Virus record (IMG/VR): IMGVR_UViG_2675903352_000017
Coordinates: 1-6,928 of that record
Length of the DNA stretch: 6,928 nucleotides
Direction: 5' to 3' (one strand)
Source: a virus
Taxonomy: Duplodnaviria > Heunggongvirae > Uroviricota > Caudoviricetes
Part shown: piece by piece, positions 1 to 6,928 of the stretch
Layout: every line of letters starts with the position of its first letter
Numbering within the stretch: the first letter of the stretch is position 1
The notes under the pieces: model-generated
Databases searched by the model: none
Told to the model about the DNA's origin: nothing
Seen by the model: the letters and a program-made list of their open reading frames with translations, nothing else
Made by a program: the position numbers and the translations under genes

Positions 1-138
1 AAAGGCCCCATAAGGCGCTCGCGCTAATGACACCCGTGGAATATATTTTAAGAGAGAACAAAAATTGCAATATGTGGTGGACCCATACATCTCCTTGCCT
101 TTCGGCACGTAAGAGGCTAACCTACATGTGTCTAGCAT
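1..138 (-). CDS. Partial hypothetical protein, 5' end only; the frame runs off the window start
   Basis: ATG at 138..136 on the - strand, preceded by GAGG (150..147) with an 8-nt spacer and an in-frame upstream stop. The frame stays open for 46 codons to position 1 (MLDTCRLASYVPKGKEMYGSTTYCNFCSLLKYIPRVSLARAPYGAF...). No family recognised; too short for the ORF track. Confidence 0.2.
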   Translation of the reverse strand, partial: MLDTCRLASYVPKGKEMYGSTTYCNFCSLLKYIPRVSLARAPYGAF

Positions 139-202
139 GAAATTGGCCTCAGATTAATGTTAAGCGTCTTGCAGGACGCGTAATGTTAACTGGGGCTTTT
201 CT

Positions 203-238
203 CTATCTGCCGTTGGTGTTCATGCCCGAGGCAGATAG
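203..238. repeat. 9-bp perfect inverted repeat CTATCTGCC / GGCAGATAG separated by 18 bp
   Basis: Read directly: 203..211 CTATCTGCC and 230..238 GGCAGATAG are exact reverse complements. No U/T run follows on either strand, so it is not an intrinsic terminator; it could be a protein-binding site or an RNA stem. Confidence 0.35.
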
Positions 239-292
239 CCTCAAGCACCCACAGCCATTCTACTTAACTACCGTTACCTCGCCAATATGAAA

Positions 293-397
293 TCAGTCAG
301 AAAGGCGATCCATAAGAACAACAGCAAGGCAATAAATTGCCATTACAGCAGCAATAGCCAGCGCACATTTCAGAACCAGCACAATGACCTCCCACAT
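293..397 (-). CDS. Small hydrophobic peptide, about 29-42 aa with one predicted transmembrane helix; hypothetical
   Basis: - strand frame MWEVIVLVLKCALAIAAVMAIYCLAVVLMDRLSD, stop TGA at 295..293. Three in-frame starts are possible: TTG 421..419 (AGGAGG about 10 nt upstream), ATG 397..395 (no SD), GTG 382..380 (GGGAGG 393..388, 5-nt spacer). It overlaps the listed + strand ORF 287..481 antisense, so which strand codes is unresolved. Confidence 0.25.
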   Translation of the reverse strand: MWEVIVLVLKCALAIAAVMAIYCLAVVLMDRLSD

Positions 398-493
398 TTG
401 ACGTACACGTGCATGATTCAATATGTGGCAACCTCCTCCTTGCTTCAATGCAAAATCAAGTATTGTTGTATAACTATTTAACCAACTCCCTAT

Positions 494-537
494 CCCCGCA
501 TCTCAGGCGCCCAACTTATGTGTGCGGGGCGTTTTTT
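494..537 (+). terminator. Putative rho-independent terminator on the + strand
   Basis: GC-rich stem options CCCCGCA (494..500) / TGCGGGG (523..529), or CGCCC (508..512) / GGGCG (527..531), followed directly by T6 at 532..537. On the - strand the hairpin is followed by AUAGGGAG, not a U tract, so it is directional for + strand transcripts. Confidence 0.4.
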
Positions 538-543
538 AATACC

Positions 544-627
544 TTACCCCCAGCGGCAAATCAAATACACCACCAGCGCCACCGCCAGTGCAATACCTAC
601 TGTTGTGAATGCCTCAGGCCAGCTCAT
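544..627 (-). CDS. 27-aa predicted single-pass membrane peptide; hypothetical, last gene of a three-gene operon
   Basis: ATG at 627..625, translation MSWPEAFTTVGIALAVALVVYLICRWG, stop TAA 546..544. A strong SD AGGAGG sits inside the last two Arg codons of the upstream 115-aa gene, 7 nt before the ATG. Hydrophobic core with a basic C-terminus. Below the ORF-track size cutoff. Confidence 0.45.
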   Translation of the reverse strand: MSWPEAFTTVGIALAVALVVYLICRWG

Positions 628-631
628 TGAT

Positions 632-979
632 TCACCTCCTTCGTGGTTCTGGTAGCGGCATCCAGTCGGTTACATTGCGGCTCTGTGTTTCAAAAAATTC
701 ATTACCATTGCGGACAATATCGAAAAACTCACCGTCTCGATATTGCGCATGAAGAACGAATGCGCCATCACATAAAATAATTACGTGCTGACCATCACCT
801 AGCATTCGCTCACTACAGCTTATCCAACCGCCCGAAGTTACCGGAGAGTTGCCAGTCTTACGCATGGCAATCTCCACGATTTCAACCATATCTCCTGGTG
901 GAATTTTACAGTGCTGACCCAAATGCCTCTGCTGCCTGGCATACTCAAGGATGTGCTCCAGTTTGATTCGATTAATCAT
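632..979 (-). CDS. Hypothetical protein, 115 aa, second gene of the coupled operon
   Basis: Complete ORF from the track. Its ATG (979..977) overlaps the TGA stop of the upstream 135-aa gene as ATGA; GGAG lies 7 nt upstream. No family recognised from the sequence (MINRIKLEHILEYARQQRHLGQ...). Confidence 0.7.
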   Translation of the reverse strand: MINRIKLEHILEYARQQRHLGQHCKIPPGDMVEIVEIAMRKTGNSPVTSGGWISCSERMLGDGQHVIILCDGAFVLHAQYRDGEFFDIVRNGNEFFETQSRNVTDWMPLPEPRRR

Positions 980-1383
980 GATTTATCTCCCTTAAGCATG
1001 GCTGCACGACAGGCCTCTTTGAGCACCCAGTCAACCGCGTCTTTCCATGCTCCGGTTTCGACTGGCGGATTTTCACGCTTAACCTGTTCATAGAAACGCA
1101 CTGCTTTAATCAATCCTTCTGGTGTCAGTGACACAGGTGTAGCGGTGAATAGAGGTTTAGGTGTTATCTCTGCACGTTTTGCGTATGCATCAACTGTGTC
1201 AGGATTAAACAGGATTATGTTTTCGCCGTATTCCCACGCTATCGGCTCTGCTTCCAGCGATGCCAGAGCAATTTTGAATAACTCACCCTCTACTCGTGCC
1301 ACCCCTGAATTGGGGTGGCATTTCGCAATCGCTATTTTTAATTTAGCTTCTTCGATTAATTGCTCTTTTGTTAATTCAGTCAT
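976..1383 (-). CDS. Hypothetical protein, 135 aa, first gene of the coupled operon
   Basis: Complete ORF from the track (MTELTKEQLIEEAKLKIAIAKCHPNSG...). It follows a 158-bp AT-rich intergenic region and is same-strand coupled to the 115-aa gene. No family recognised. Confidence 0.7.
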   Translation of the reverse strand: MTELTKEQLIEEAKLKIAIAKCHPNSGVARVEGELFKIALASLEAEPIAWEYGENIILFNPDTVDAYAKRAEITPKPLFTATPVSLTPEGLIKAVRFYEQVKRENPPVETGAWKDAVDWVLKEACRAAMLKGDKS

Positions 1384-1392
1384 TTTTCATTA

Positions 1393-1408
1393 CCGCCCTT
1401 TCGGGCGG
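1393..1408 (-). other. GC-rich hairpin with a GAAA (GNRA) tetraloop in the 5' leader of the 135-aa gene
   Basis: - strand RNA reads AGGAGG-CCGCCC-GAAA-GGGCGG-UAAUGAAAAAUGACU. A 6-bp GC stem (1393..1398 / 1403..1408) lies between an AGGAGG motif (1420..1415) and the start codon at 1383. A 4-codon mini-ORF (ATG AAA AAT GAC TGA, from 1390) overlaps the real start. No U tract follows, so it is not a classic terminator. Confidence 0.3.
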
Positions 1409-1541
1409 CCTCCTGATGTTTTGAGGGTGCAGGAATCCCTCCTGTTAAGGATTAAATTTTATTTACAGTGCTGAGATTAATTATTCAGATTTGAATTATG
1501 TTTTCTCTTTCACTTCACGCAGTCCTGATTGTTAATTTGGC

Positions 1542-1958
1542 TCACAGTACCACCTCCTGCAAACTTCCCTTCCAGAAAGCCAGCACGCGCTGCATAGTTT
1601 CGCTCTGACGGCACTCTCGGCAAATTATGTTCTGTCTCCTGTTGTAACGGCGTATCTCGCTATCTGGCAATGAATAAACCAGGTCGGGGTCGTTCTTCTT
1701 TTTCACTGCCGCTCTCGACATTTTTTTGCAGGCTTTTATCCAGTCCTTACGAGCCTGTTCTGAAGGAAATATTCCATGGCCTGAACCATATAGCGTGCCA
1801 CTAACTACCAGCTCTTTCGCCAGAACTTCTATCAGGTGTCTCGTTGCTCCGGTTTCATCCTCCAGTTGCTTACGTGTTTTCCTCCCATCTCTGCGCACCA
1901 GTTCCACAATACGCGCCTTCAGTTGCTCCCGATATTCAGGTGTAAAAACGTTTCTCAT
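1542..1958 (-). CDS. Hypothetical protein, 138 aa from the ATG at 1958; the longest ORF begins at 2015 (157 aa)
   Basis: Track ORF 1542..2015. The internal ATG at 1958..1956 is preceded by GGTGAGG with a 5-nt spacer and avoids a 50-nt overlap with the upstream gene, so it is the preferred start. Product MRNVFTPEYREQLKARIVELVRRDGRKTRKQLEDETG...; basic, no family recognised. Confidence 0.6.
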   Translation of the reverse strand: MRNVFTPEYREQLKARIVELVRRDGRKTRKQLEDETGATRHLIEVLAKELVVSGTLYGSGHGIFPSEQARKDWIKACKKMSRAAVKKKNDPDLVYSLPDSEIRRYNRRQNIICRECRQSETMQRVLAFWKGSLQEVVL

Positions 1959-1965
1959 AAGTGCC

Positions 1966-2727
1966 TCACCTTTCCGACACAACGCGACTGGAGGAATCGA
2001 CAATCTGTCGGACAATATCCCGGTGTTTATTCAGCTCCCGCAGCGCGGCGCAGACGCGCTCCCACTTCTGGACATGATTTTTCGCCCGGCGCAGTTCGCG
2101 GTTTGCCAAATGCAGCGATGGTAAAATCAGGTCATCCGCCCGCGTTTCGGTGAACGATGGCAGCGACTGCACAATGTCCGCCACAGTTTCTGTTTTAATT
2201 TCTTCCTGTGTTACAGTTTCCTGTGCTGGTAACGCAACACCTGCTGGCTGAGGAAAGGCTTTACCATCTGTTTCCGTTACCAATGCGGCTTTCGGCTCTG
2301 CTGGTAAATTATCGTCCGGCATGCAGTAACGAAATTTACCGTTCTGATTTACGCGAATCAGGCGACCTTTGCTGATTGCCTGAGCCAACGTTGAAGCCAC
2401 TTTGCGTGATGTGATACCGAACAGCGTAGCCAGCTCATCAGCCGTTTGTGGTCCGCGTTGTTCAATCGTCGCCGTTAAATCGCACTCTGAGATTTTCGCT
2501 ACTGTTGCCGTGGTAGTTTCTTCATGAAATTCAGCCCGGGATGCTTGTTCCTGCTGAGCATTGCTACCAGCCACACGCCAGGTGTACGCGGTTTTATCAA
2601 CGAAACCAGATTTTTTCAGTTCCCACAGCTCATTCAGTACCTCTTCACGACTGATATCAAGTCGCGCAGCAAGTTCTATGGATGTGGCCTTTCCCATCGC
2701 TTTCAGTGCGTCAAAAACAGTCTCCAT
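1966..2727 (-). CDS. Hypothetical DNA-binding protein, 253 aa from the ATG at 2727; the longest ORF begins at 2778 (270 aa)
   Basis: Track ORF 1966..2778. The internal ATG 2727..2725 is preceded by GGAGG (2740..2736) with an 8-nt spacer and removes the 29-nt overlap with the DnaC-like gene. The N-terminus ([43 protein letters not shown]) and a second segment ([32 protein letters not shown]) look like winged-helix/HTH motifs; that reading is inference. Confidence 0.65.
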
Positions 2728-2749
2728 TAAAATTTCCTCCCGGTAAAAA

Positions 2750-3496
2750 TCACTTCGTGATTCCTGGCTGGACGACATTCGGGCGCCAGCTTTCCCAGTT
2801 AAAAGTCACCCAGCGCCCGCCGTTCATGGTCATGCGATCCATAATCCTCTCGCCGAGCAACGTTTTCATGGCCTCATAGTTCAGGTTTGTCAGCATCCCC
2901 ATACTGCGCATCGATGCTGTCCGGCGATCAACAATCTGATGCAGCACCACCTGCTCGTTTTTCGTCTCACGCTGAATGCCAATTTCATCAAGAACCAGCA
3001 GATCCACTTCGCACAGTTCCCGCAAAAATTTTTCGCCTGACTGCCCGTCGTCATAGCTGGCGTGCAGGGCACTCATAACATCAGCCACAGTAACCACTAT
3101 CACTGTCTGGCCGTCTTTCAGCAGGCGATTCCCGATAGCCGCCGCCAGATGGTTTTTTCCGGTACCAGGTTTTCCGCTGAACGCGAAATTTGTGCATCCG
3201 GTCATCAGTTCATCAGCGATGGATTTCGCCTGACTTAACGCGTATCGCTGGCCGTCGTTCTGTACATGGTAATTCGCAAACGAGCATTTACGGTGCAACG
3301 GCTGGATGCCTGAGCGATTCAGAATTTTTTCCACCCGCAACTGGCGATTCAGGCGGTTGATCTCCTCGCTACGCTTCTGGCCTTCAGCAAGTTGCCACTC
3401 GCGCCACTCCGCTACCGTTCTGAATGGGGCGGTTACATGTGGCGGGGTCAGTCTGCGGATACGTTCCAGAACGCCGCCTGTCGCAATATTTTTCAT
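2750..3496 (-). CDS. ydaV: DnaC-family replicative helicase loader (AAA+ ATPase)
   Basis: 248 aa. Walker [18 protein letters not shown], Walker [10 protein letters not shown], and C-terminal [21 protein letters not shown]...[10 protein letters not shown] align along the full length with E. coli DnaC as I recall it. It follows the initiator gene after a 6-nt gap. The symbol is given from family plus synteny with Rac (ydaU-ydaV). Confidence 0.92.
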
Positions 3497-3502
3497 GGTT
3501 CG

Positions 3503-4465
3503 TTACCCCCTGAACCCCGGAGGAATTTCGGTGTCCGGTTCAGAAATATGATTCACACAACGCTGTACAGGTGAACGCCCCAGGCGGATGACCAGTTCGT
3601 CCCATTTTTCGCGGAGCTTTGACGGGCTCATGATGTTTTTTACCCAGAATGGATCCCGCTGTACCCGCCCAAACATTTCGCAAATTTGTCTGTGAGTTCT
3701 GCCATCCAGCATCCGCATTGTGCGCACGTCATTGGCCCACGCGGTCCAGTTTGGTTCTTTCGGTCGCGTGATCTCGCCATCATCGCTGGCCGCCTGCTCG
3801 TAAAGACTCACGATTCGTCCCCAGATCCACTGTGCGCACGCCAAATCTTCCTGACTTCCCCACTGGCGTTTTTTCGCACTGAACACAACCGCATCAGGGT
3901 GTCGGGTTAAAAAATCCTGTTCAGCCGTCTGCGGGTCCGGTTGCGAAGCGTCCGGACAAGAAGATCTTTTATCTGATGGATCAGATTTTAATACTGACGG
4001 ATCGGGGTCAATCATCGCCCCCCTAACCGACCGTTTTTTATCAACGGTTGATCCATCAAAATTTGACGGGTCAACCGTTGAGGGGTCAATATTTGACGGG
4101 TCAACCGTTAACGGGTCATTTTTTGCCGGGCTAATTTTTCTTTTCGGTTTATATGCCTCTCGCGCCGCCGCTGCTGCAGCTTCGAGTTTTTCCACATTAA
4201 GCCGGTAGATATTGCTTACGTTACGTCCGCCAACCTTACGCTCTTCCTTTGTCAGCCAGCCGCTTTTTTCCAGTTCCGCTATCGCCGCTTTAACCGTTGA
4301 TTCACTCTTTGCCCCAATCTGACGACGAATGGTCTCTACTGCAGGCCATGACACACCTTCATCATTGCTGTAGTCTGCAAGACGAGCCATCACTGCCACC
4401 CTGGATAAGATCATGCCGGTGAAGGCACACCCTTCCCAGACAAGACCATGAAGCTTGCTGCTCAT
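3503..4465 (-). CDS. Phage replication initiator (O-like origin-binding protein; YdaU-like by position)
   Basis: 320 aa. N-terminal winged-helix pattern typical of phage/plasmid replication initiators (ILSRVAVMARLADYSNDEGVSWPAVETIRRQIGAKSESTVKAAIAELEKSGWL). Central repetitive linker PLTVDPSNIDPSTVDPSNFDGSTVD is encoded by the iteron DNA. Sits immediately upstream of the DnaC-like loader. Confidence 0.8.
   Translation of the reverse strand: MSSKLHGLVWEGCAFTGMILSRVAVMARLADYSNDEGVSWPAVETIRRQIGAKSESTVKAAIAELEKSGWLTKEERKVGGRNVSNIYRLNVEKLEAAAAAAREAYKPKRKISPAKNDPLTVDPSNIDPSTVDPSNFDGSTVDKKRSVRGAMIDPDPSVLKSDPSDKRSSCPDASQPDPQTAEQDFLTRHPDAVVFSAKKRQWGSQEDLACAQWIWGRIVSLYEQAASDDGEITRPKEPNWTAWANDVRTMRMLDGRTHRQICEMFGRVQRDPFWVKNIMSPSKLREKWDELVIRLGRSPVQRCVNHISEPDTEIPPGFRG
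3995..4155. repeat. Putative origin of replication: iteron cluster and adjacent AT-rich tract inside the initiator gene
   Basis: Perfect 19-bp direct repeat ATTTGACGGGTCAACCGTT at 4061..4079 and 4091..4109. Related partial copies: TGACGGATCGGGGTCA 3995..4010, TCAACGGTTGA 4041..4051 (inverted relative to 4071..4081), GGGGTCAAT 4082..4090, ACGGGTCA 4111..4118. An AT-rich stretch follows at 4118..4155, and several GATC sites sit at 3979..4052. Same logic as lambda ori lying inside gene O. Confidence 0.6.
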
Positions 4466-4488
4466 AAAAAACCCCGAACACCGTGCTT

Positions 4489-4914
4489 TTAGTGCATCAC
4501 CACGGCATTTCCTGCCGGGCCACCGCGATTAATCTGGTTGAAACCAGCAATTGCCACCGCAATAAAATCATCTGCATCCCTCACCAGCCGCTCCCGCGTC
4601 TCCAGCAGCTCCCGAAAATAGGCTGAACTGTGACTGCGCATTCGGGCCACCAGCAGAGGCGGCATTGCCTTTTCGATCGCAGGTAACAACGCCTGAATTT
4701 TTTTAACCGCATCAGGGGTGTCTTTCTCCACCCAGCGGAAAATTTTCTGAGTATTGCGAGCCAGGGCTTCAGGATGGCTGTCGTCATATAATTCCGGGAA
4801 CGTCATACCCAGCTCAAAATAAGCTCGGGTTATTTCAGCCGCCGGAACTTTTTCGCCATCAGGACGCGCCCAGGCATTCATCGCCATGCGGATGTGTTCA
4901 TGCTTGATTTTCAT
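4489..4914 (-). CDS. ydaT: YdaT-like protein (proposed CII-like regulator / toxic product of the Rac early-right operon)
   Basis: 141 aa, immediately downstream of the Cro-like gene and upstream of the initiator, matching the size and position of Rac ydaT (about 140 aa). Assigned by synteny and size; I cannot verify the sequence match from memory. Confidence 0.6.
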   Translation of the reverse strand: MKIKHEHIRMAMNAWARPDGEKVPAAEITRAYFELGMTFPELYDDSHPEALARNTQKIFRWVEKDTPDAVKKIQALLPAIEKAMPPLLVARMRSHSSAYFRELLETRERLVRDADDFIAVAIAGFNQINRGGPAGNAVVMH

Positions 4915-4936
4915 GAATCATTTGCCTCTTGATGTT

Positions 4937-5233
4937 TCAGGTATGATCAAATGAGGATTTGTTACTGTCATTTAGTTGCTTCACTGACATATTCTGCGAA
5001 TAACATGCCGAACGTCGTAAATATGACCAGTCAATATCAGGACGAAGTTCTTCGCACAGAACGTCACCTCTTGTTGCACGTTCAATTGCTGGACATCTCT
5101 CTGCAGGCAATTGACGTACCCCTTTGATCCATTGATTTACGCTTGGAGGTGATACACCTAAAAGCCTAGCCATTGCTGATTGCCCACCGACAACAGCACA
5201 AGCTCGCTTGAATGAATAGTTCTCTTTTTTCAT
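4937..5233 (-). CDS. ydaS: Cro/YdaS-family HTH DNA-binding protein, first gene of the early-right operon
   Basis: 98 aa; MKKENYSFKRACAVVGGQSAMARLLGVSPPSVNQWIKGVRQLP... matches my recollection of E. coli K-12 Rac YdaS nearly residue for residue. HTH motif present. GGAG sits 8 nt before the ATG. Divergent from the repressor gene across the operator region. Confidence 0.8.
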   Translation of the reverse strand: MKKENYSFKRACAVVGGQSAMARLLGVSPPSVNQWIKGVRQLPAERCPAIERATRGDVLCEELRPDIDWSYLRRSACYSQNMSVKQLNDSNKSSFDHT

Positions 5234-5259
5234 CGAATGAACTCCAAAAACACACAGAG

Positions 5260-5289
5260 ATATTAGGCGACGCCTAATGCTAATGTCAA
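5260..5289 (-). promoter_or_regulatory. pR-like sigma70 promoter for the ydaS-ydaT-replication operon
   Basis: - strand -35 TTGACA (5289..5284), 18-bp spacer, -10 TAATAT (5265..5260). The -10 and spacer overlap operator O1. The predicted transcript start is about 20 nt upstream of the ydaS SD. Confidence 0.5.
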
Positions 5290-5329
5290 TAGGCTATGCC
5301 TAATGCAGTAAGAATAGGGATTGCCTAAT
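5262..5329. promoter_or_regulatory. OR-like tripartite operator: three 17-bp palindromic sites, consensus ATTAGGC-N3-GCCTAAT
   Basis: O1 5262..5278 ATTAGGCgacGCCTAAT (perfect inverted repeat); O2 5288..5304 AATAGGCtatGCCTAAT; O3 5313..5329 AATAGGGattGCCTAAT. Centres are 26 and 25 bp apart. The sites lie between the divergent repressor and Cro-like genes. Confidence 0.6.
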
Positions 5330-5334
5330 ACAAT
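5329..5334 (+). promoter_or_regulatory. Possible -10 element of a pRM-like repressor promoter (weak or absent -35)
   Basis: TACAAT at 5329..5334 on the + strand, about 7 nt before the racR SD AGGAG (5341..5345), with no good -35 hexamer 17 bp upstream. Resembles an activator-dependent pRM-type promoter next to O3. Speculative. Confidence 0.25.
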
Positions 5335-5356
5335 GAGCATAGGAGAATATTAAGCA

Positions 5357-5833
5357 ATGCTTAGTGGTAAAGACTTAGGCCGAGCAATAGAGCAGGCCAT
5401 TAACAAAAAAATCGCATCGGGATCCGTCAAATCAAAGGCGGAGGTCGCTCGCCACTTCAAAGTCCAACCACCATCAATCTATGACTGGATTAAGAAAGGC
5501 TCCATAAGTAAAGATAAACTTCCAGAATTATGGCGTTTCTTTTCTGATGTTGTTGGTCCAGAGCATTGGGGGCTTAACGAATACCCCATACCAACCCCCA
5601 CCAACTCAGATACAAAAAGTGAACTTTTAGACATAAACAACCTTTATCAGGCAGCCTCTGATGAAATAAGAGCGATTGTAGCTTTCCTGTTATCAGGAAA
5701 TGCTACAGAACCAGACTGGGTTGACCACGATGTTCGCGCCTACATAGCAGCGATGGAAATGAAAGTTGGTAAGTATCTGAAAGTTCTAGAATCTGAACGG
5801 AAAAGCCAGAACATCACAAAAACTGGAACTTAA
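5357..5833 (+). CDS. racR: Prophage repressor, RacR-type (cI functional analogue, HTH)
   Basis: 158 aa; MLSGKDLGRAIEQAINKKIASGSVKSKAEVARHFKVQPPSIYDWIKKG... matches my recollection of E. coli K-12 RacR in sequence and length. HTH near the N-terminus. Flanked on both sides by arrays of the same operator palindrome. Confidence 0.85.
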   Translation: MLSGKDLGRAIEQAINKKIASGSVKSKAEVARHFKVQPPSIYDWIKKGSISKDKLPELWRFFSDVVGPEHWGLNEYPIPTPTNSDTKSELLDINNLYQAASDEIRAIVAFLLSGNATEPDWVDHDVRAYIAAMEMKVGKYLKVLESERKSQNITKTGT

Positions 5834-5846
5834 ACTTATATGGTCT

Positions 5847-5876
5847 GACGGAAAACTCCTGGATTCCGTTATTTAA
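5847..5876 (+). terminator. Weak candidate terminator or stem-loop downstream of racR
   Basis: GACGGAA (5847..5853) pairs with TTCCGT (5864..5869) around a 10-nt loop, followed by TATTTAAT. Stem is short and the U tract imperfect. Confidence 0.2.
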
Positions 5877-5928
5877 TCCCTCCCATCACTTTTTTCATTC
5901 GCATCACCTATTGGGTTACGCCCAGAAC

Positions 5929-5972
5929 ATTAGGCAAAGCCTATTGACAATCAATTAGGCATTACCTATAGT
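5929..5972 (+). promoter_or_regulatory. pL-like sigma70 promoter with two overlapping operator sites (OL-like)
   Basis: -35 TTGACA 5944..5949, exact 17-bp spacer, -10 TATAGT 5967..5972. Operators O4 5929..5945 (ATTAGGCaaaGCCTATT) and O5 5954..5970 (ATTAGGCattACCTATA) are 25 bp centre-to-centre and overlap the -35 and -10. Confidence 0.6.
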
Positions 5973-6071
5973 TCCAGCATGCCACCCACCCCGCCCCACA
6001 GCACGCAGGGCAATACTTCGAGTTACCAGGCAGTGGTCAGGGGTTAAGTAGCCAGCCCGAGGCGTAAGAAC

Positions 6072-6302
6072 ATGACGGCAGGGTTCAACTTTAACTATGC
6101 AGCAGGTTTTTGTTCCGCTACCCCGGCGTTAAGGGGAAATGAGGTCAGCATGGATACTATCGATCTTGGCAACAACGAATCTCTGGTGTACGGCGTGTTT
6201 CCCAACCAGGACGGCACGTTCACCGCGATGACGTATACCAAAAGTAAAACGTTTAAAACCGAAGCTGGCGCGCATCGCTGGTTAGCAAGAAACTCTGACT
6301 GA
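6072..6302 (+). CDS. Small hypothetical protein, first ORF of the early-left operon (76 aa, or 50 aa from the internal ATG at 6150)
   Basis: Track ORF. ATG 6072 has GAGG 9-10 nt upstream; the internal ATG at 6150 has GAGG 6141..6144 with a 5-nt spacer (MDTIDLGNNESLVYGVFPNQDGTFTAMTYTKSKTFKTEAGAHRWLARNSD). Rac carries small ORFs (ydaG/ydaF) in this position, but I cannot confirm the sequence identity. Confidence 0.5.
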   Translation: MTAGFNFNYAAGFCSATPALRGNEVSMDTIDLGNNESLVYGVFPNQDGTFTAMTYTKSKTFKTEAGAHRWLARNSD

Positions 6303-6313
6303 TGAGGTTGACG

Positions 6314-6928
6314 ATGGAATTTAAAGATTTACCTACTTCAATCCAGGAGATTGCAGCACACACACTTCGTCATCGTCTGAACGAACTTGCATTGGAATCG
6401 GTAACGAAAAAAGACACTGATAATATGGCTCGTAATGTGCGCGATGCGTTTACCGGATTGTATTTCTGTGCGTCTGTAAATAAACACGACTCAGAGAGTG
6501 TGGCAAATAAAATTGCAGAAACGACAGCGCAAAACATCAATACGAAACCAACGGAAGAAGAAATTGATCAGTTTGCTCATGATGCTGGTTTAAAAAACAA
6601 GAAAGAAAAATCGCCATATGCGGGGAACATGTTTGTTTATGACAATCTCATCAGAATTCGTGGCGAAATTCCGGCGGAATACCTGGCAAGAGTCCATCAG
6701 GCATTGCTTAAAAATCTGGAAACAGAATTATTTGATGGCAACACTAACGGTTTCTTCATGGTATCAGGCCTTGAGAAAGACTGGGATGCAGAAAAACGCT
6801 GGAATGTTGCTACATGGTTATTCAGTAACAGAGCCGCTGCTCTGGAAGCTTCGGCATGTATTTGCGGCCTGTTCTTAACAGACCACAAATATAATCTGGA
6901 TGTGTACAGTTATATTTACGCTGGTTAA
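6314..6928 (+). CDS. Hypothetical protein, 204 aa from the ATG at 6314 (208 aa from the ATG at 6302, which overlaps the upstream stop as TGATG)
   Basis: Complete ORF ending with TAA at the window edge. GAGG 6304..6307 lies 6 nt before the ATG at 6314. Product MEFKDLPTSIQEIAAHTLRHRLNELALESV... is hydrophilic, with no transmembrane segment and no motif I recognise. It sits in the early-left operon driven by the pL-like promoter. Confidence 0.7.
   Translation: MEFKDLPTSIQEIAAHTLRHRLNELALESVTKKDTDNMARNVRDAFTGLYFCASVNKHDSESVANKIAETTAQNINTKPTEEEIDQFAHDAGLKNKKEKSPYAGNMFVYDNLIRIRGEIPAEYLARVHQALLKNLETELFDGNTNGFFMVSGLEKDWDAEKRWNVATWLFSNRAAALEASACICGLFLTDHKYNLDVYSYIYAG

Follow-up and report, generated by a model that had tools for sequence, protein, structure and literature searches.

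A predicted 29-residue membrane-peptide gene beside the hok/sok locus of a Rac-like lambdoid prophage

The ORF29 reading frame and its start signals

The stretch of DNA analysed here (the window; 6,928 nucleotides (nt), positions 1 to 6,928 of the IMG/VR record IMGVR_UViG_2675903352_000017, a virus of the Caudoviricetes) carries near its 5′ end a 29-codon open reading frame (ORF) on the - strand, termed ORF29 (293-382; GTG start at 382-380, TGA stop at 295-293). Its predicted product, MLVLKCALAIAAVMAIYCLAVVLMDRLSD, consists of one hydrophobic helix followed by a charged tail, reads as a single-pass peptide and contains two cysteines. A Shine-Dalgarno sequence, GGGAGG (388-393, - strand), sits exactly 5 nt ahead of the GTG. 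On one side of ORF29 lies a + strand hairpin followed by six T residues (494-537), on the other the promoter and leader of a hok gene together with its antisense RNA gene, sok, and a + strand frame of 64 amino acids (aa) is open across ORF29 itself (287-481). An earlier note, made from the letters of the window, had read positions 293-537 as a type I toxin-antitoxin layout in which the peptide is paired with a + strand RNA ending at the hairpin. The elements it described, i.e., the hydrophobic-helix frame with its charged tail and GGGAGG, the G+C-rich stem with T6 and the + strand frame, were all recovered at their positions, while the hok/sok locus and the Sok terminator hairpin (~147-205) were absent from it.

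In its longest form, the - strand frame spans 448-293 and reads 51 aa from a TTG; other in-frame starts are a TTG at 421-419 (42 aa), an ATG at 397-395 (34 aa) and the GTG at 382-380 (29 aa). Across 92 loci, comprising the window, five annotated records, 80 viral contigs and six genome contigs, the conserved part of this frame is confined to its last 29 codons. The 51-, 42- and 34-aa forms were rejected, as other contexts have lost the TTG and ATG starts ahead of the GTG as well as the strong AAGGAGGAGG. The 29-codon frame itself is unbroken and begins with GTG in 92/92 loci, including one haplotype in which TGA is replaced by TAA and the stop preserved.

Conservation of the peptide frame in related prophages, which the earlier note had named as a check, was thus found, and it extends to the pattern of substitutions. 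The 23 ORF29 haplotypes hold 27 variant alleles (15 synonymous, 12 non-synonymous), which fall 6/6/15 on the three codon positions; this third-position excess corresponds to a ratio of non-synonymous to synonymous polymorphism (pN/pS) of 0.27, with a binomial p of 0.0008 relative to the proportion of synonymous sites. As a control, three pseudo-frames of the non-coding hok leader from the same loci gave pN/pS values of 0.88-1.5. The same count on the hok coding sequence gave 0.72, a weak coding signal that may stem from the overlapping mok frame and from folding constraints on the mRNA. Replacements in the ORF29 peptide are conservative (A/V/I/T, D/N/E and R/H). Judged by these comparisons, ORF29 is under purifying selection.

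The same alleles bear on the fallback offered in the earlier note, namely that the + strand ORF at 287-481 is the real gene and the hairpin its own terminator. The frame is open in the window, and equivalent ORFs have been annotated in phage HannyBb. However, most of its variation falls on first codon positions (15/6/6; pN/pS 0.71), and a CTG-to-CTA change that is synonymous for ORF29 introduces a stop into the + frame in a haplotype of eight loci. Toward its 3′ end it extends into sequence with no counterpart in most loci, no protein family matches it, and a frame antisense to a Leu/Ala/Val/Ile-rich ORF is open by default. The substitution pattern and the internal stop together argue that the - strand gene is real and the + strand ORF is not; as a gene the latter was ruled out, and the reading built on it is almost certainly wrong. 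We consider it very probable, from these signatures, that ORF29 is a genuine translated gene. As a side observation, HannyBb carries annotated + strand ORFs antisense to the hok leader and to ORF29 (window 183-290 and 287-481; L001 1594-1883), and the 35-aa ORF at 183-290 matches PHROG families 7511, 19126 and 19835 with E values down to 1e-18; these families appear to have been built from spurious ORFs antisense to hok leaders.

The signals ahead of ORF29 are conserved as well. Among 39 distinct upstream sequences, GGAGG is kept at constant spacing from the start codon in nearly all, diverged leaders included; HannyBb has GGAGA in its place and locus L072 has TGAGG. Further upstream, a putative sigma-70 promoter (420-448, - strand) combines a -35 element TTGAAG (448-443), a 17-nt spacer and a -10 element CATATT (425-420), matching 8/12 consensus positions with an optimal spacer. 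The -10 is invariant in 39/39 upstream sequences and the -35 reads TTGAA(G/T) in 33/39, while the 17-nt spacer between them is wholly different from context to context. Two short elements within window positions 398-425, GT(G/A)TACGTC and CATATT(T/G)A, are conserved in every context and may serve either strand: a + strand promoter-like site at 398-424, which overlaps the proposed - strand -10, faces away from ORF29. Consensus folding of 12 diverse ORF29 leaders with RNAalifold yielded no more than a weak stem (-8.7 kcal/mol) that lacked compensatory changes, and no conserved structure that would hide the Shine-Dalgarno sequence.

ORF29 has no family match in Pfam, PHROGs, NCBIfam or PADLOC, and a full-text literature search with the peptide sequence returned no papers. 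The study of the related hokW-sokW locus of phage Sp5 does not describe it (PMC8621323), nor was it mentioned in the parts of a large Hok survey reached by term searches (10.1101/2025.08.07.668861). Protein databases list the peptide, at lengths of 29-42 aa and in Escherichia only, under the name "hypothetical protein" or "putative membrane protein", and NCBI's Prokaryotic Genome Annotation Pipeline (PGAP) leaves it unannotated in most RefSeq genomes.

Linkage to the adjoining hok/sok locus

The hok/sok pair is a textbook type I toxin-antitoxin system, and copies carried by prophages have recently been linked to phage release (PMC8621323). In the window, the hok promoter (257-285, - strand; -35 TTGGCG at 285-280, 17-nt spacer, -10 TAGAAT at 262-257) is the sole 9/12 promoter match in positions 1-1000, is conserved in all aligned loci and would start transcription at ~250. 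Directly downstream begins position 1 of the Rfam model RF01794 ("sok"), which matches the - strand at 250-84 over its full length (model positions 1-157) at 110.3 bits (gathering score 59; E 3.8e-25). As the model spans the whole leader in the hok-sense orientation, the match marks the strand of the hok leader (84-250, - strand; mok start and Sok target) and not that of Sok. The Sok gene itself was placed on the + strand at ~130-200 by projecting the sokW misc_RNA of phage 933W (L092 941-1011) through an ungapped 180-nt match; it is predicted to fold at -30.5 kcal/mol and to end in a terminator hairpin whose tail is U-rich. Over window positions 90-269, the leader, the -10 of the promoter and the Sok gene together show 95% identity to hokW/sokW of 933W.

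In relatives, a coding sequence for a HokW-like protein of 51 aa begins 211 nt past the ORF29 stop, on the same strand. The Hok coding sequence is present in 82 related loci and absent after the leader in the window, where homology to intact hok loci ends at position 90, the leader is truncated at ~89/90 and the mok frame reads on into the end of an IS481-family-like insertion sequence (1 to ~89; strand not assigned). The element separates the hok Shine-Dalgarno sequence from the hok ATG and coding sequence and leaves Sok and its promoter untouched. An identical junction occurs in L003 and L006, i.e., in chicken E. coli isolates (NZ_CP148493.1 and relatives) and one IMG/VR contig; in L003 the element (1052-2140) encodes a 362-aa transposase that scores 221 bits against the NCBIfam IS481 model, just below the cut-off of 224, and beyond the element is hokD. 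With the leader running into this element and no Hok coding sequence behind it, the window locus is read as belonging, in disrupted form, to the hok/sok family. Thus, by homology, a real type I toxin-antitoxin locus adjoins the flagged segment and has been disrupted by an insertion sequence. Three related loci carry a premature stop in Hok (…VFTA-stop-EPEE) and an intact ORF29.

Within 5426 complete E. coli genomes, the ORF29 region is present in 1159 (~21%), and the whole query (262-632) matches at as many as four sites in a genome; among sequenced phages, only four have ORF29. Species-level genome scans recovered it in Escherichia and Shigella only, plus E. coli-like contigs in metagenome bins. 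These searches need exact words of 8 or 5 residues, or a short tblastn match, so that distant relatives could be missed.

Wherever ORF29 occurs, hok is nearly always next to it. A hok leader lies 3′ of ORF29 in 90 of the 91 loci with downstream sequence. The sole exception, L090 (Shigella flexneri CP182557.1), diverges a few bases past the ORF29 stop and has no hok promoter or leader, an arrangement that probably arose by an insertion-sequence-mediated rearrangement. The ORF29 stop lies 7 nt from the hok -35 and the hok leader starts 42 nt downstream of ORF29, with no terminator-like site in between; ORF29 transcripts should therefore run on into hok. On the upstream side, homology between prophage contexts starts at ~449-453, just upstream of the putative ORF29 -35. 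As delimited by these breakpoints, ORF29, its putative promoter and hok/sok are one accessory cassette (window ~90-453) that travels together and has entered, by recombination, at least four different upstream contexts among the prophages of Escherichia and Shigella.

The hokW loci of the 933W type (933W, VT2-Sakai) lack ORF29. Their homology to the window stops at 269, a breakpoint that falls between the hok -10 and -35, and in 933W a 27-aa ORF, which in the window lies upstream of ORF29, directly adjoins the hok promoter. Given the cassette linkage and the existence of hokW loci without it, ORF29 is best regarded as an optional upstream extension of prophage hok/sok cassettes.

This proximity to hok also feeds a different explanation, in which ORF29 is not translated and its sequence is retained as a cis-acting element upstream of the hok promoter or by recent spread of the cassette. 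The distance of only 7 nt to the hok -35, the low overall divergence of the region (~85-93% identity) and the lack of PGAP annotation in most RefSeq genomes would all fit. It would, however, leave the third-position excess and the gap between the pN/pS of ORF29 and that of the non-coding frames unexplained, together with the preservation of start, stop (including the TGA-to-TAA change) and Shine-Dalgarno spacing across diverged leaders. Moreover, 933W-type hok promoters work without any ORF29 sequence (PMC8621323). We hold this explanation to be quite improbable.

The + strand hairpin and a possible antitoxin

The hairpin at 494-537 pairs CCCCGCA (494-500) with TGCGGGG (523-529), followed by CG and T6 (532-537). 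Its predicted folding energy, -14.0 kcal/mol, is unexceptional (z -0.81; 42/200 shuffled sequences fold as well), and a generic terminator scan skipped it because of its atypical 22-nt loop. A perfect 7-bp G+C-rich stem with T6 within 3 nt occurs once in the window on both strands and in ~1% of dinucleotide shuffles, by a criterion that was picked after the motif had been seen. The U tract exists on the + strand only, relatives form a longer stem (~-18 kcal/mol), and variants favour neither strand consistently. Judged from stem and U tract, the element is probably an intrinsic terminator for + strand transcripts.

It is nonetheless rare and context-specific, and not a fixed partner of ORF29. 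The block 452-545 that contains it was found in 24 of the 5426 genomes, always in a window-type context; it thus accompanies ORF29 in only 24 of ~1159 genomes, and in 26 of the 92 loci. One carrier of both is E. coli SMS-3-5 (NC_010498.1, near 1,185,087-1,185,180). Loci of the L004 type (50/92; L004 is a prophage in the DH5alpha assembly NZ_CP026085.1, near 2,583,400) show no + strand terminator in the corresponding 150 nt. In a divergent sub-family (L028/L029 and L065/L066; ~77-83% identity), an unrelated hairpin, GCGCCTTGT...GCAGGGCGC (~-18.7 kcal/mol), occupies the same position between the 27-aa ORF and ORF29, which suggests that some hairpin is favoured at this junction. The prophage small RNAs PasA-D were considered as the identity of the + strand element and rejected, as they lie near lysis genes and not here.

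These distributions weigh on the proposal that ORF29 is a type I toxin whose antitoxin is the + strand RNA ending at the T6 (537). ORF29 is small, hydrophobic, conserved and coding-like, with a peptide of the size and hydrophobicity of the TisB, DinQ or ZorO class. The hairpin with its T6 is non-random, and the + strand TTGACG-15-CAATAT (398-424) could give rise to an RNA of ~105 nt with two hairpins that ends at 537, in a geometry like that of Sok relative to hok. Set against this are not only the scarcity of the hairpin and the terminator-less L004-type loci but also the composition of the RNA itself. With the end of the conserved cassette at ~453, the sequence that a + strand RNA from ~431 would have in common across contexts is short, namely at most ~22 nt that are the variable promoter spacer; past ~453 the contexts are unrelated and the RNA would have no conserved body. 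Nor would such an RNA overlap an ORF29 mRNA starting at ~413, and the leader has no conserved structure to conceal the ribosome-binding site. Indeed, no conserved + strand promoter-plus-terminator pair was found associated with ORF29 across contexts. Comparison with Hok, TisB, DinQ, ShoB, Ldr, Ibs, ZorO and Fst revealed no meaningful sequence similarity, and ORF29 was rejected as a relative of any of them. We regard a toxin paired with the hairpin RNA as very improbable.

Sok was likewise considered as a regulator acting in trans on ORF29 mRNA and rejected: the duplex energies of the two RNAs lie within the shuffled range and are no better than those of the controls, with no excess complementarity. 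Taken together, these results argue against the layout with a hairpin antitoxin, while the peptide may still be toxic or be regulated by an RNA encoded elsewhere. Of the type I arrangement put forward in the earlier note, the neighbourhood, which does hold a type I locus (hok/sok, 84-250), and the strand of the peptide stand; the hairpin partner, seen in 24/5426 genomes, does not. The real toxin-antitoxin pair lies next door, inactivated by an insertion sequence, with the convergent terminator incidental.

Prophage context, proposed role and known systems

The window represents early-region DNA of a Rac-like lambdoid prophage whose PR operon is on the - strand. An immunity region of Rac-like composition is made up of a RacR-like repressor (5357-5833, + strand), YdaS (4937-5233; Pfam "toxin YdaS", also Cro-like) and YdaT (4489-4914). 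Below it follow a replication initiator gene (3503-4465), a DnaC-like loader gene (2750-3496), an ORF without family assignment (976-1383) and, in the same early block, genes for DUF1627, DUF977 and DUF551 proteins; on the far side of the repressor are a DUF1391 protein (6072-6302) and an ORF of 208 aa without family match that reaches the window edge (6302-6928). The flagged segment 293-537 lies directly downstream of the early gene block in the direction of PR transcription. The block also holds the 27-aa hydrophobic ORF MSWPEAFTTVGIALAVALVVYLICRWG (544-627, - strand), which starts 4 nt past the DUF551 stop and has its Shine-Dalgarno sequence within the end of that gene. It recurs at 74-91% DNA identity in many Shiga toxin (Stx) phages and other lambdoid phages. 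Primer YO-432 of the Sp5 study begins at its ATG (PMC8621323), and the hokW-sokW clone used there therefore includes it. ORF29 was examined as a duplicate of this ORF and rejected for want of significant similarity; the local DNA alignment scored no better than shuffles, and the protein score gave p ~0.03.

The account that we favour, at a probability of roughly 0.6, is that ORF29 is a companion membrane-peptide gene of hok/sok with which it moves as one cassette, the hairpin being incidental. ORF29 is a companion gene, not a demonstrated second toxin-antitoxin pair. It would be transcribed in the direction of the early PR operon and of hok, by read-through on induction and probably, in addition, from a weak sigma-70 promoter of its own (448-420). 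The peptide would insert in the inner membrane with its N-terminus inside, an orientation expected from the positive-inside rule, as Lys5 and the acidic DRLSD tail are on opposite sides. Our best guess at its role is an accessory membrane peptide that acts alongside Hok or modulates it; a second membrane-active toxin ranks as less likely. As to the hairpin, it would most likely stop + strand transcription running antisense into the early operon, with read-through from Sok as a guessed example.

Several points weigh against this account. Common descent, as opposed to a shared function, could account for the association with hok, and ORF29 remains unbroken in loci that have lost hok to an insertion sequence or a nonsense codon. 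The putative ORF29 promoter matches at only 8/12 positions and has its -35 destroyed in one sub-family (TTGAA is missing from 6/39 upstream sequences), and the + strand TTGACG-15-(C/A)AATAT at 398-424 could be an opposing promoter instead. Lastly, the 27 alleles behind the substitution test come from sequences that are close relatives, and what was counted was alleles, not independent events.

A reading close to the companion-gene account makes ORF29 a membrane toxin, or a third component of hok/sok, that is controlled in some other way: by antisense transcripts reading through from Sok, by an RNA encoded elsewhere or through interaction with Hok at the protein level. The almost obligatory linkage (90/91 loci), the shared orientation without an intervening terminator and purifying selection on a 29-aa transmembrane peptide with two cysteines speak in its favour. 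However, complementarity between Sok and ORF29 mRNA does not rise above shuffled controls, the exposed Shine-Dalgarno sequence and short leader are unlike those of tightly silenced type I toxins, and ORF29 persists where hok is inactivated. Moreover, hokW/sokW of Sp5, which is of the 933W type and lacks ORF29 at the DNA level, is a complete working toxin-antitoxin system (PMC8621323). On balance we think this reading unlikely.

A more specific and more speculative version, which we rate as decidedly unlikely, would make ORF29 the third protein component of a large subclass of prophage hok/sok loci, co-transcribed with hok, that either tunes pore formation by Hok and the timing of lysis in the manner of an antiholin or co-holin, or acts as a second toxin released on induction. 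If it held, these cassettes would be tripartite, unlike the canonical hok/mok/sok design.

What the companion-gene account would mean depends on the peptide. A 29-aa membrane-peptide gene that appears to be under selection is fused to the upstream side of a hok promoter in about one fifth of complete E. coli genomes, mostly unannotated. Should the peptide act on Hok or the membrane, experiments and annotations confined to hok, mok and sok are incomplete; if it acts on neither, ORF29 is one more uncharacterised small prophage protein. Unless it is shown to affect Hok, the gene is of modest interest. On present sequence comparisons, ORF29 is a gene for a small, uncharacterised membrane protein that is joined to a toxin-antitoxin locus of a known family.

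The short hydrophobic type I toxins of E. coli (TisB, DinQ, ZorO, ShoB, Ibs and Ldr) measure 26-35 aa, a range that includes ORF29. They share with it a single transmembrane helix and residence on a mobile or accessory element. ORF29 differs in having no sequence similarity to them, no cognate antisense RNA identified, a short unstructured leader and an exposed, conserved Shine-Dalgarno sequence.

Chromosomal hok loci inactivated by insertion sequences have a precedent: hokA, hokC and hokE of K-12 are reportedly of this kind, as Pedersen and Gerdes are said to have described in 1999. As in the window, an insertion sequence disrupts hok and leaves the Sok side intact. The window differs in that the element is IS481-like, lies between the hok Shine-Dalgarno sequence and the ATG and sits in a prophage copy.

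ORF29 also resembles the "moron" genes of prophages and other small bacterial membrane proteins (PMC12648545), being a small gene for a single-pass membrane protein that is inserted between phage operon blocks, seems to have its own promoter and varies in presence among prophages that are otherwise alike. It differs from a moron in lacking its own terminator and in its physical fusion with a toxin-antitoxin locus.

The closest known system is hokW/sokW of the Stx phages 933W and Sp5 (Takada et al. 2021, PMC8621323). Window positions 84-285 are the same locus, of the same Rfam RF01794 family, and it likewise lies in a nin-like region of a lambdoid prophage. The window departs from it in the insertion sequence that has split hok between leader and coding sequence, and in the presence of ORF29 and the hairpin, both absent from 933W-type loci; ORF29 lies outside the components by which the system has been defined, hok, mok and sok.

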